A stretch of 64,000 nt of DNA from Bdellovibrionales bacterium (GTDB taxonomy: Bacteria; Bdellovibrionota; Bdellovibrionia; Bdellovibrionales; DASUEL01), in the NCBI GenBank assembly GCA_050250255.1, contig JBFWOZ010000008.1, positions 1 to 64,000 of the forward strand. The letters run 5' to 3'. The notes under the pieces are model-generated. The model saw only the letters and a program-made list of their open reading frames with translations. It made no database searches and was not told the DNA's origin. Both the position numbers and the translations under genes were made by a program. Of the stretch, positions 18,813-49,359 are shown piece after piece (within the stretch, counting starts at the first letter, position 1; the number at the start of each line of letters is the position of its first letter).

Positions 18813-19412
18813 ATGCCAAGAAAAAAGCTTATATATACTCATGAATTTCCCTACCACGTGAGCGCAAGGTCCAATAACAAAGAATGGTTCTACCTACCAA
18901 AAGAAAAGGTTTGGGAAATATTTATTACCGAACTTAATTACATCTCAGTCAAATACAAGGTACTGATTCATGCTTTTGTGCTGATGGACAATCATTATCA
19001 CTTATTACTCACTACATATCCCAATTGTGATTTAGGGAAAGTTCTATGTGAACTGCAAAAATCCGTAAGTCGGAAAATCAATTTCTATGCGGGTAGAATT
19101 AATCATGTTTTTGGTGGCCCCACCAAACCTTCCCTCATCGTTACGCCAGAGTCTTATCAACGAGTTTTAAAATATATTTATAGAAATCCTGTAACCGCAA
19201 ATTTAACCACACATGTAGAGCACTATAAATACTCGAGCTTAAACAGCGACCGCTTTGGATTATCAAGTCCTATAGGATCTATTGCACGCATGGTTCCGCA
19301 AGAAGGTCTAAATGAATGGCTTAATCAAGCCGAGTCTCCAGACGACTACGAAGCCACAAAACATGGATTAAAGAGAACCACCTTTAAACCTAGAATTTTA
19401 AGGAAATACTAA
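18813..19412 (+). CDS. REP-associated tyrosine (Y1/HUH) transposase, RAYT
   Basis: MPRK..YHVSARSNN, AFVLMDNHYHLL (HUH), YIYRNPV (catalytic Tyr), YKYSS. Confidence 0.9.
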   Translation: MPRKKLIYTHEFPYHVSARSNNKEWFYLPKEKVWEIFITELNYISVKYKVLIHAFVLMDNHYHLLLTTYPNCDLGKVLCELQKSVSRKINFYAGRINHVFGGPTKPSLIVTPESYQRVLKYIYRNPVTANLTTHVEHYKYSSLNSDRFGLSSPIGSIARMVPQEGLNEWLNQAESPDDYEATKHGLKRTTFKPRILRKY

Positions 19413-46203: not shown

Positions 46204-47007
46204 TCAATGCGTATGCGTCAGCCGATGGTGCCCCGAACAAAGCGTCGTAAGATTCTCTAAAGCATCATTTCCACCTTTATTACGAGGAATAATGTGATGG
46301 GTGTCGAGCCACCTCCGCTCCTCGCACCTTTGTCCCATTGAGTCGCGGTGAGTGCACTGACCGCGATCTCTCAAAATCACCTGTCGCGCGACAGGGAAAT
46401 TGGCCCGATGCTGTAATTTCTCGGCTTTTCTCACTGGATCTTTTTGCTCTAAGTAGATATTGAGCAAAGCTTCAAGCGTATCTTCAAGACTCGCATGTTT
46501 TTGTTGGCGTTGAGATTCCAACTCTTGGGCTCGTTTGAGTTTTTGATGAAGCTCTTTAGAAATGCCCATTTGCAGGTTGAGTCTTTCTTCACTTACAAAC
46601 TTCACCCGCTCAGGAGTCGACTCTTGAGGGCAAATTGTAGCAACTTGCTGTTCAAGTTTTTTCTGCGGCAGCTCAATGGCCATCTTGAGCCACTCCTCCT
46701 GATTCGTAGGAGTCAAAACCGGCGTGATCTTTCTTGCCTTCGAAACGCTGAGCGTACCTGATTGAATCGCTCGCTTCAGCTCAGGCACTTCCTTGGCTTT
46801 TCTCGCTACGGTGATAAAATTGTAAGCCGTACTTTCACTCAACTTCAACACATTCACCGTATAGTCATAGAGACTTTTGCATTCGAATTTTAAATACACC
46901 CGGCCATCATCGATTTGCTGGAGAACTTCAATCACATCTGATTCCGCCTTTTTGAATCGCCCCGCTACAGCCAAAGCTTTTTGATGAATTTCCATATACT
47001 TCGTCAT
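46204..47007 (-). CDS. HNH endonuclease with DUF222-like helical N-terminal region
   Basis: LRDRGQC..C...DTHHIIPRNKGG...NLTTLCSGHH...H; N-terminal SLYDY..LKLSES..Y; AAAAGGAG RBS. Confidence 0.88.
   Translation of the reverse strand: MTKYMEIHQKALAVAGRFKKAESDVIEVLQQIDDGRVYLKFECKSLYDYTVNVLKLSESTAYNFITVARKAKEVPELKRAIQSGTLSVSKARKITPVLTPTNQEEWLKMAIELPQKKLEQQVATICPQESTPERVKFVSEERLNLQMGISKELHQKLKRAQELESQRQQKHASLEDTLEALLNIYLEQKDPVRKAEKLQHRANFPVARQVILRDRGQCTHRDSMGQRCEERRWLDTHHIIPRNKGGNDALENLTTLCSGHHRLTHTH
46380..46395. repeat. 16-bp palindrome, copy 1 (inside the HNH CDS)
   Basis: CCTGTCGCGCGACAGG, encoding PVARQ. Confidence 0.9.
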
Positions 47008-47264
47008 GCTTATCTCCTTTTCGCTAAAAGTTGCATGACCATAACATAGATTTTTCTGAGCACATTTATGAAGAGCGAAGAATGGTTTTTAAAATGCATT
47101 TAAACTTTCATAAATGCTCTCGGTCAAATTGATTTTATAAATTCAAAAATCGAAAATATTTTTTCATGTACGTGACAAGTATTCAACTTTAAGATTTAAG
47201 AAAATGTGTCAATGTTTTCTTCATATTTATTTGATTAGATATATTTGAACTACACGGCCGCAAG

Positions 47265-47280
47265 CCTGTCGCGCGACAGG
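47265..47280. repeat. 16-bp palindrome, copy 2 (intergenic)
   Basis: CCTGTCGCGCGACAGG followed by TAA; identical to copy 1. Confidence 0.9.
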
Positions 47281-47386
47281 TAATTTCAACAAGTCTCTGT
47301 CTTTCATGACGAATGATCGCTGCTAAAATTACGTTTATTGACAGCTTTGATTCGACAACCATAGACTATGGCTAAAGGATAATTTT

Positions 47387-47842
47387 ATGAGAAACCTCTT
47401 CCTCTGTTGTTTTTTTCTAGCGGGCTGCACAACTTCTTTCAAACGAGAAGGCTACAGCATTAGCTCGTACCAAGCTGATCCTCAGCAGTGCAAAGTGGCT
47501 ATACGGTATCAAGCCAAACCTGAAGAAAAAGCTGGAAAGCTTTTAGGAACAATTTCGGCAAGTGAACCCGGATTAGGAACCACTTGTGATCATGAATATG
47601 TCGTCCTTCAGTTCCTGAAAGATGCCTGCGAGATAAAAGCGGACTTAATCAATATCATCGAAGAAAAGTTTCCAGACCATATTAGCACTTGTTATCGTGC
47701 AAAGGCCGAATTGATTGCTGTGAACTCTAAACGCTTACTAAGAACTGATGCCAGATATTATCCAGACAAAATACGTAAAAATACCAAGAAGCTTGGCCAA
47801 ATATTTACTGAGCAGTTTAAAGCTCAATGGAACAATGAGTAG
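47387..47842 (+). CDS. Hypothetical lipoprotein
   Basis: Lipobox LAGC; several Cys; AAGGA RBS. Confidence 0.75.
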   Translation: MRNLFLCCFFLAGCTTSFKREGYSISSYQADPQQCKVAIRYQAKPEEKAGKLLGTISASEPGLGTTCDHEYVVLQFLKDACEIKADLINIIEEKFPDHISTCYRAKAELIAVNSKRLLRTDARYYPDKIRKNTKKLGQIFTEQFKAQWNNE

Positions 47843-48014
47843 TTGTTGCTGAAATATTCCTAGCCGAAAGCGCTGATCACAGCAACAGCATTTCAGGGAG
47901 CATTTCGTGACAAATAATGGCTAAACGTTATACTTTTTTTGTTACTTCTGATGAGCTCTGCCGGGTGAAATATCCCTCAAATTCAAATAAACTAACAAGC
48001 AGTTGTCTTTTCTC

Positions 48015-48030
48015 AGGTCTGTCTCTTGCA
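48015..48030 (+). promoter_or_regulatory. Putative sigma54 promoter
   Basis: AGGTCTGTCTCTTGCA (GG-N10-GC), similar to the 3088-3103 site. Confidence 0.4.
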
Positions 48031-48065
48031 CTTACGTCTACTACTTATCAAAACAGGAGAATCAA

Positions 48066-48335
48066 ATGAAACTTTCGCTTATTGGAATGCTGGTTTTGTC
48101 TTTTAGCACCATGGCTTCTGCTGATAGTTTTTCTGACAATTGCGACAGCATGCGAGAGCATGCAGTTATTCTATCCACCAATCTTCAAGCGATTAGCAAA
48201 AATGAATTAAATATTGCGCTTGAAGCTGCAAAAGAAGGTAAGCAAATTGATTTGAAGTCTTCTAATGAAGGCATTATAAATATTGCAGATACTATCGATA
48301 GACTAAACTACAAAATCAATCAGCAGTGCAAATAG
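48066..48335 (+). CDS. Small secreted helical protein (two Cys)
   Basis: CAGGAG RBS; signal peptide ending TMASA. Confidence 0.7.
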   Translation: MKLSLIGMLVLSFSTMASADSFSDNCDSMREHAVILSTNLQAISKNELNIALEAAKEGKQIDLKSSNEGIINIADTIDRLNYKINQQCK

Positions 48336-48392
48336 CTACCAACTACATACCTGAGCAAGCAACGACCGCAATACCACGAAATTCCATAGGAA

Positions 48393-48408
48393 CCTGTCGC
48401 ACAACAGG
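48393..48408. repeat. 16-bp palindrome, copy 3 (2 mismatches)
   Basis: CCTGTCGCACAACAGG followed by TAA. Confidence 0.75.
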
Positions 48409-48660
48409 TAAATAGAAGCCAACAAATATTTTTAGTGAATCAATGATTAGATAACGACCCAAGTATGTTTATCGTGGATAGCTAGCTTGCTTCTGAAACT
48501 TTCATACCTGCTCGCCTACTAACTGCAATCCCACAGCATTTCATGACAAATATTGCTCTCGGGTTGGCAAACTAATAATTTATTGGAGTCTGAAATTTGC
48601 AATAGATGATTCAGAGTCCATTAGACATTGGTTCAAATCGTATTTAAGAGGAGGCTATTT

Positions 48661-48976: not shown

Positions 48977-49359
48977 TTAGCTCGCCTTGGAAACAAACGG
49001 GCTGCTGAGTGTTACACACATGAACACATACACAGGCAAGCCCTTGTGCCCCTCGATCTTCCATTCTTTCGAAGTCATCTTCAGAGAAGAAATTGCGCTT
49101 GAAGCAGTCAAGTGTTGGTAAACATTCTCAGAGACCGCAACCTCATGAGCATCGGCAAAAGCTTGTAATTTAGAAGCTAAGTTCACGGAGTTTCCAAAGT
49201 AATCCATACCGTGATTGAGATTCACCGCAATCACCGATCCGACGTGCATTGAAATTCTTAATCGTAAGGGCGTATCCAGATTATTCTGAGCAAAGCTTTT
49301 TTTTGGATTTCAACAGCAGCTTCGAAAGCATCATCGATGGATCCAAAAGCGCCCGTCAC
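48977..49359 (-). pseudogene. Truncated, frameshifted class III adenylate/guanylate cyclase C-terminus
   Basis: VTGAFGSIDDAFEAAVEIQK, frameshift near the A8 run at about 49297-49304, then DTPLRLRISMHVG...DYFGNSVNLASKLQ; N-terminal part absent. Confidence 0.8.

Follow-up and report, generated by a model that had tools for sequence, protein, structure and literature searches.

A palindrome inside and upstream of a ParB-like HNH nuclease gene as a candidate binding site of the gene's own product

The first 64,000 nucleotides of contig JBFWOZ010000008.1 from a Bdellovibrionales bacterium (assembly GCA_050250255.1), the whole stretch analyzed and hereafter called the window, encode a minus-strand protein with an HNH nuclease domain, and a 16-bp palindrome occurs both within this gene and upstream of it (Table 1). 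The original prediction, made by inspecting the window, counted three copies of the palindrome. Two exact copies and one with two mismatches were confirmed, and the window contains no further match at up to three mismatches (chance mean 0.17); three copies were reached in 0 of 100 shuffles of the window. The internal copy lies in frame, as had been stated, and encodes P205-V-A-R-Q209 at the beginning of the HNH domain. The outer copies had both been placed in adjacent non-coding DNA; the third, however, is not immediate to the HNH gene but 1.4 kb upstream of it, beyond two small open reading frames (ORFs). On the plus strand both intergenic copies are indeed followed by TAA, which belongs to a wider A/T-flanked site and is not a stop codon. 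The upstream and internal sites are 885 bp apart and bracket the leader and most of the HNH gene, and the upstream site occupies the same position as the first upstream site of the gene copies in a related genome, G029. In read mapping, one contig, possibly the source of the stretch, covers it with no joint at any site, a result that carries no weight as evidence.

Table 1. Coordinates of the palindrome copies, the HNH gene and nearby features in the window
Feature	Position	Strand	Remarks
Internal 16-bp palindrome	46380..46395	.	Codons 205-210, linker/HNH junction; position +612, the same in close paralogues
Upstream identical copy	47265..47280	.	On the outer margin of the conserved leader, 258-273 bp upstream of the ATG
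Third copy, 2 mismatches	48393..48408	.	Plus-strand 3' flank resembles the G029 array sites
Gene for a 267-residue protein with ParB-type DNA-binding, ribbon-helix-helix-like and HNH regions, compact DUF222-HNH relative	46204..47007	-	ORF, Pfam HNH, AlphaFold2 model (predicted local distance difference test score, pLDDT, 95), hhalign
Predicted ParB/Spo0J/Noc-type DNA-binding domain, residues 9-127	46627..46983	-	Includes N63, R92, K93 and Q115, each co-varying with bases of the site
Ribbon-helix-helix-like region, residues 143-200	46408..46581	-	Core of the predicted homodimer interface
HNH nuclease domain, residues 204-267	46207..46398	-	Pfam HNH, conservation, structure comparison
Leader, homologous among paralogues	47008..47264	-	Conserved TTGAC motif at 47207-47212, -35-like
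151-residue ORF, lipoprotein-like N-terminus	47387..47842	+	Lies between the second and third sites; single-copy in the genome, no family above cut-off
89-residue ORF, signal-peptide-like start	48066..48335	+	Also between the second and third sites; single-copy, no family

The HNH domain is predicted to be intact, with its zinc and catalytic residues kept: across 111 homologues C218, C228 and H237 are invariant, and H238, N252, C257, H260, H261 and H265 are at least 90% conserved. Residues 16-129 of the AlphaFold model match the DNA-binding domains of ParB, KorB, Spo0J and Noc, the best match (VIA) having a Z score of 7.1 and a root-mean-square deviation of 3.5 over 99 residues. When this domain is folded alone, the Foldseek matches shown to rank 28 are all ParB, Spo0J or Noc proteins (probability 0.77-1.00, TM up to 0.64), and beyond that rank the probability drops below 0.1. 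The HTH_ParB family is matched weakly by 32 of the 111 homologues (E<=0.05), while searches of PDB sequences returned HNH domains or designed helical repeats only. Residues 143-200 show weak structural matches to TraM, MazE and MatP (Z 4.4-4.5) and form the center of the interface in a homodimer model scoring 0.77, compared with 0.00 for the best of three controls; at least 95% of contacts recur between runs, and the pLDDT is 86-87. Of 30 solved pairs, 20 reach the mark set for this score, as does 1 of 23 single chains; resemblance to solved dimers may contribute to it. Modeling thus predicts a homodimer with a ParB/Noc-type fold.

Homologues of the gene, which where named are mostly labelled Oligoflexia or Bdellovibrionota, were de-duplicated by sequence, giving 142 complete loci with at least 700 bp of upstream DNA. 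An unbiased scan found a 16-mer of the linker, a region making up 20% of gene length, repeated within 2 kb (no more than one mismatch) in 51 loci, as against 17 for a 16-mer from outside the linker. An upstream copy of the linker palindrome itself occurs in 35 loci from about 19 assemblies, 10 of the loci coming from genome G201 and 4 from G029, and comprises 24 different sequences (22 exact). In a cross-class swap control, 3 of 1086 comparisons match. The distance of the upstream copies from the start is mostly 170-490 bp, and their identity with the internal copy falls to background beyond 16-18 bp on average. G201 alone contains four site classes, each with its own upstream match, and two loci of one assembly (L099 and L101) likewise have two classes with matching upstream copies; at L142 the same 16-mer is encoded in another reading frame.

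The site is conserved as DNA among the paralogues of the genome under study, which carries nine full close copies of the HNH gene (this one included, 69-75% identity), four partial copies, seven distant ones and one fragment. A GTC-N4-GAC core sits at the same codon in 11 of the 12 close paralogue loci, in several sequence classes, the twelfth being frameshifted there. Synonymous sites are near saturation (pS 0.72), owing to which the ratio of non-synonymous to synonymous substitution (dN/dS) is unusable within this genome. Even so, the third base is invariant at only 2 of the 26 four-fold codons, V206 being one of them, and A ends codon 208 in 12 of 12 genes although three different codons occur. 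That the palindrome is a coincidence of codons inherited with the gene, joined by chance local duplications, is scarcely credible. Long flanking identity does reveal real duplications at 2 of the 35 loci (L104 and L280), but the swap control and the frame-independent occurrence refute this explanation, and the third-base invariance at V206, the linker excess and the symmetric centers described below also contradict it. The notion that upstream copies are remnants of tandem gene duplication was likewise rejected, since flanking identity averages no more than background, apart from the clear exceptions L104 and L280. At L280, in genome G148, a near-perfect palindrome some 54 bp long is centered on the site upstream of the gene and, in degenerate form, within it, an arrangement suggestive of fold-back repair at the site.

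In its exact form the 16-mer has just two copies in the 3.09-Mb genome. Its wider pattern, CCTGTC-N4-GACAGG, has nine perfect copies where 0.036 are expected, making it the genome's most over-represented 6-4-6 palindrome; five copies lie within HNH paralogues, one upstream at this locus and three elsewhere. Among 251 genomes of the order the pattern is present in 15, and all four genomes with at least six copies carry the gene family, which is itself patchy (41 of 251). Genome G108 has three copies of the pattern with asymmetric centers and no close family match. The HNH-gene enrichment and the limited occurrence led to rejection of a generic repetitive extragenic palindromic (REP) element or a phylum-wide box, in keeping with the original prediction. 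A host regulator box (LexA or similar) or a chromosomal parS-type site carried along by the genes is very improbable. One copy does stand upstream of a nucleoside phosphorylase-like gene (C2:21215), yet the pattern is missing from 236 of the 251 genomes searched and the site differs between paralogues of one genome. A LexA box in particular was rejected because neither lexA upstream region holds a copy; these regions have only A/T-rich 12-mers in common with the HNH-gene leaders. The copies at C2:17239 and C2:21215 are solo sites that differ in class from each other and lie 4 kb apart, on either side of a gene cluster resembling one for nucleoside catabolism. Linker palindromes of the distant paralogues at C31:22625, C27:237, C10:43518 and C5:64416 are imperfect and partly odd-centered, with upstream copies at C31 and C10.

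Differences between the sites follow differences between the proteins. Among the 77 rows retained for counting, K in profile column 116 (Q115 here) coincides with C at site base 7 in 24 of 25 rows and Q in 0 of 22. After clustering at 60%, C is found at base 7 in 13 of 14 K rows versus 4 of 20 non-K rows, and column 116 ranks first of 221-224 columns for this base at 90, 70 and 60% clustering. Arginine in column 93 (R92 here) accompanies G at base 4 in 36 of 39 rows, whereas other residues accompany T in 31 of 38. Most of the top columns for site bases 3-7 fall within the DNA-binding domain, and the protein in the window, with Q115 and R92, agrees with its own site. According to the fold match, the co-varying residues would lie on helices that touch DNA in ParB. 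A simpler code, in which the recognition helix alone (STAYN, VASN or VAYN) sets the outer bases, was seen in nine paralogues and failed family-wide, with column 64 pairing both ways.

The form of the palindromes points to the manner of reading. When palindromes were picked by their outer arms alone, the center was fully symmetric in 20 of 34 linker palindromes, compared with 0 of 16 from other parts of the genes and 40 of 550 across the genome. A symmetric center is more readily explained by a two-fold dimer on duplex DNA than by a hairpin loop, and a dimer reading two 8-bp half-sites is very likely. The hairpin or REP-like picture of the original prediction is therefore abandoned, given the self-complementary centers and an N-terminal fold resembling that of duplex-binding ParB and Noc. 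In its explicit forms, a single-strand hairpin would be either a REP mobilized in trans by a Y1 (RAYT-like; REP-associated tyrosine transposase) enzyme or an RNA terminator or attenuator just before the HNH domain. Y1_Tnp matches exist in this genome (eight) and in G029 (two), the internal copy is terminator-like on the gene strand, and other hairpin repeats pile up in the leaders. No site lies near a Y1 gene, however, the nearest in the window being 27 kb off; folding does not exceed that of shuffles (z 0.22, 0.35 and -1.74); and terminator-like matches number 4 where chance gives 3.1. Since the site also co-varies with residues of the HNH protein itself, a hairpin is quite improbable. A structured RNA was rejected, with no Rfam family and no excess folding. 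The Y1 transposase-like match of the window, one of the eight in the genome, is at 18852-19082 on the minus strand.

Beyond single loci, the sites form arrays and occur alone. G029, whose genes have nearly the same site, contains 64 site copies versus 0 in the control, arranged as inverted arrays of site-bounded units of 77-477 bp on both sides of the gene; the units are found near HNH genes or contig ends. At L057 in G029 the internal site has been fused to a downstream one by a deletion. The G029 gene copies are 90-94% identical, occupy different neighborhoods and show a dN/dS of 0.13. In genome G189 the solo sites are mostly intergenic, and 0 of 10 fetched loci have an HNH match; the same absence was noted in six of eight fetched site loci of G201, where one orphan site keeps the gene's leader and is thus a remnant. 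Orphan sites of the genome under study include several between convergent genes and one within coding sequence, and an isolated 190-bp HNH-gene fragment with an internal site was observed at C1:133762-133950. Codons 208-232 (46312-46386) of the gene in the window are the only one of ten segments nearer to the G029 copies (0.63) than to its own paralogues (0.52), a weak hint of patch exchange beginning at the internal site. At L288, L290 and L304, solo sites belonging to two paralogue classes lie next to each other, and at least six degenerate sites follow one another in tandem between two genes. A phage or plasmid origin was rejected, no relative having been found in viral contigs or phages and one distant match on a plasmid.

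Taken together, sequence comparison and structural models make it probable that the palindrome is a duplex binding site for the protein of its own gene, and that this gene is a self-restraining selfish element. The binding evidence fits equally well with a pure operator, in which an autoregulating protein is kept for a host role (DNA-damage response, defense or suicide) while ordinary recombination yields the extra copies and solo sites. Such a role would agree with the purifying selection on the gene and with accounts of the related 13E12 genes of Mycobacterium tuberculosis, which are LexA-bound and damage-induced according to the accessible text of one paper (PMC3381160) and whose inversions are attributed to homologous recombination in that of another (PMC13157036). 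On the other hand, solo sites are mostly intergenic, often just past stop codons or between convergent unrelated genes, and not at promoters; the adjoining sites of two paralogue classes at L288 and L290 and the site-bounded arrays are also unexpected for an operator. PADLOC gave no match outside the HNH domain, and the many 16-bp specificities would seem too rare to hit random invaders. A pure operator is therefore considered unlikely.

Several observations weigh against a self-encoded site in a selfish element. An upstream copy of the palindrome is lacking at 107 of the 142 loci, which makes the upstream site dispensable, and synonymous randomization is beaten (p<=0.05) by 29 of 116 linkers only. 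The co-variation of internal palindromes with their own upstream copies, proposed as a check in the original prediction, holds across relatives but not within this genome, where a flanking copy of the own site is absent at all seven other paralogues checked. The residue-to-base counts started from 85 rows with a confident site, of which 8 were dropped as doubtful, and one site was hand-corrected. Kin are not independent, so the Fisher values overstate the association; a tree-controlled pair test with two to four supported pairs is not significant, although column 116 has no wrong-way pair. Fold scores are modest, with Foldseek E values of 0.12 and above besides the Z score and deviation cited earlier. 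Nor were precise ends observed: the G029 arrays extend past the outermost site and end raggedly, which lends no support to the suggestion that the palindrome is an end site. In genome G006, about 25 fetched gene copies have no linker palindrome and only half-site-like repeats. These loci (L032-L048 and L059) repeat a 9-bp half-site-like word in the gene and about 227 bp upstream, and the G006 copies are possibly a variant with split sites.

The leader provides a further point of this kind. An A-rich TTGAC-N4-TTTT motif is present between -250 and -200 in 75 of the 142 loci (reverse control, 2) and is possibly an alternative promoter or a regulator site; the family leaders contain no fixed -10 hexamer at sigma-70 spacing from it. 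The upstream site in the window lies 52 bp from this motif without overlap. Simple occlusion of the promoter is therefore not supported, and a loop or roadblock is likelier.

In the proposed mechanism, the predicted dimer would bind the palindrome in its own gene and upstream of it. Occupancy of both sites would restrain expression of a toxic nuclease through a loop or roadblock, and binding across the 885 bp separating them is more likely than not to lower expression in this way. Sites that bracket the leader and most of the gene suit self-repression of a toxic enzyme, as in I-TevI. Occasional nicks adjoining bound sites would be mended from another site, a step judged somewhat more plausible than its absence. 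Such repair would keep upstream and internal copies identical through many changes of specificity and would yield site-bounded duplications, deletions, arrays, solo sites, dispersed copies and lineage-specific expansions. Cleavage and self-propagation, both put forward in the original prediction, are likewise inferred. A bolder and rather doubtful extension envisages a widespread selfish element that needs no transposase. Its small ParB-HNH dimer would use the site in its own coding sequence as a handle, pair it with another site or bare DNA and nick, and repair would copy site and gene to new locations. A few residue changes would re-specify protein and site together; at least 34 natural 16-bp specificities would thereby exist, following a readable code, and the DUF222/13E12 family would work on the same principle.

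A literature search, covering mostly freely accessible main texts and thus unable to prove absence from print, found no description of a self-encoded palindrome in these genes; PMC3592412 and bioRxiv 10.64898/2026.10.19.760177 proved to have no bearing on them. DUF222-HNH genes are abundant, multi-copy and uncharacterized. The present locus supplies a substrate, a fold and single-residue predictions (Q115 or K for the center base, R92 for base 4), which opens binding, cutting and autoregulation to direct tests. Should the enzyme seed its own sites, it would represent a second route, besides RAYT, for the spread of short palindromic repeats in bacterial genomes. The family would further amount to a library of compact nucleases with natural 16-bp specificities and provide a large natural data set on protein-DNA co-evolution.

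The neighborhood of the HNH gene consists of a VTT/DedA gene and small ORFs. A 21-bp direct repeat (47899-47919 and 48535-48555), unique in the genome at up to three mismatches, stands upstream of two small secreted-type ORFs. A cassette array of small ORFs was rejected because the ORFs and the 21-bp spacer repeat are confined to this single locus. At the edge of a low-GC stretch, positions 48977-49249 on the minus strand encode a C-terminal fragment of an adenylate/guanylate cyclase domain that looks like a broken gene.

Among known systems, the closest relatives are the DUF222-HNH or REP13E12 proteins. Full-length profile homology (hhalign 99.8%, 288 columns) connects the protein to nine proteins that all match PF02720, although PF02720 itself matches neither this protein nor anything else in the genome. 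Both groups have a C-terminal HNH domain with zinc and catalytic residues and are multi-copy and dispersed, and palindromes inside and upstream of the gene were found in several of 13 DUF222 loci scanned (Myxococcota and metagenomes). The protein in the window is shorter, with 267 residues versus about 430-480. As far as their accessible text goes, accounts of 13E12 deal with LexA control, phage attachment and inversions and not with a ParB fold or a self-encoded site (PMC3381160, PMC13157036, PMC10589994). A DUF222-like HNH gene on a Rhodococcus plasmid (L308, NZ_CP050126.1) lacks an internal copy, while a perfect palindrome of 16 bp lies 109 bp upstream of it. An IscB/OMEGA identity was rejected, the score being 29 bits against a cut-off of 175 and confined to the HNH part; no guide RNA was matched by Rfam at gathering level in L001, L051 and L053.

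The predicted fold of the DNA-binding domain is shared with ParB/Spo0J (parS), Noc (Noc-binding sites) and KorB. ParB binds palindromes with two-fold symmetry, touches DNA with its recognition helix and two later helices and can switch specificity through a few residues, as described in the accessible part of one study (PMC7383237). Noc sites measure 16 bp, according to a published abstract. Unlike ParB and Noc, the protein has no CTPase clamp domain, its DNA-binding fold begins at about residue 16 of 267 with no such Pfam match, and no parA gene is nearby. A fused HNH domain, many paralogues with different sites and a site in the gene's own linker are further differences.

An analogy may be drawn with I-TevI and the free-standing T4 homing endonucleases Seg and Mob, selfish nucleases with an operator upstream of their own gene. 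I-TevI binds such an operator and cuts it about 100-fold less well, according to the accessible text of PMC2988022. It is, however, a GIY-YIG enzyme residing in an intron, with an operator that overlaps the promoter, whereas the palindrome here lies inside coding sequence; the present gene has copies scattered across the chromosome, and none was found in phages.

A different parallel is offered by the spread of the sites. In REP/RAYT systems, including REP doublets forming hairpins (REPINs) and bacterial interspersed mosaic elements (BIMEs), the enzyme gene is flanked by inverted palindrome arrays, and solo copies lie between genes. The inverted arrays around the gene in G029 and the solo intergenic copies in G189 resemble this arrangement, which is weak in the genome under study. 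In contrast to RAYT, the enzyme belongs to the HNH and not the Y1/HUH type, no Y1 transposase is flanked by the sites, and the sites appear to be read as duplex, occur also inside the gene and number tens of copies at most. By descent, then, the protein is a compact DUF222-HNH protein and not a ParB, RAYT, IscB or intron homing endonuclease, while by analogy it would behave like an autorepressing selfish nuclease equipped with a ParB/Noc reader, its side effects resembling those of REPs.

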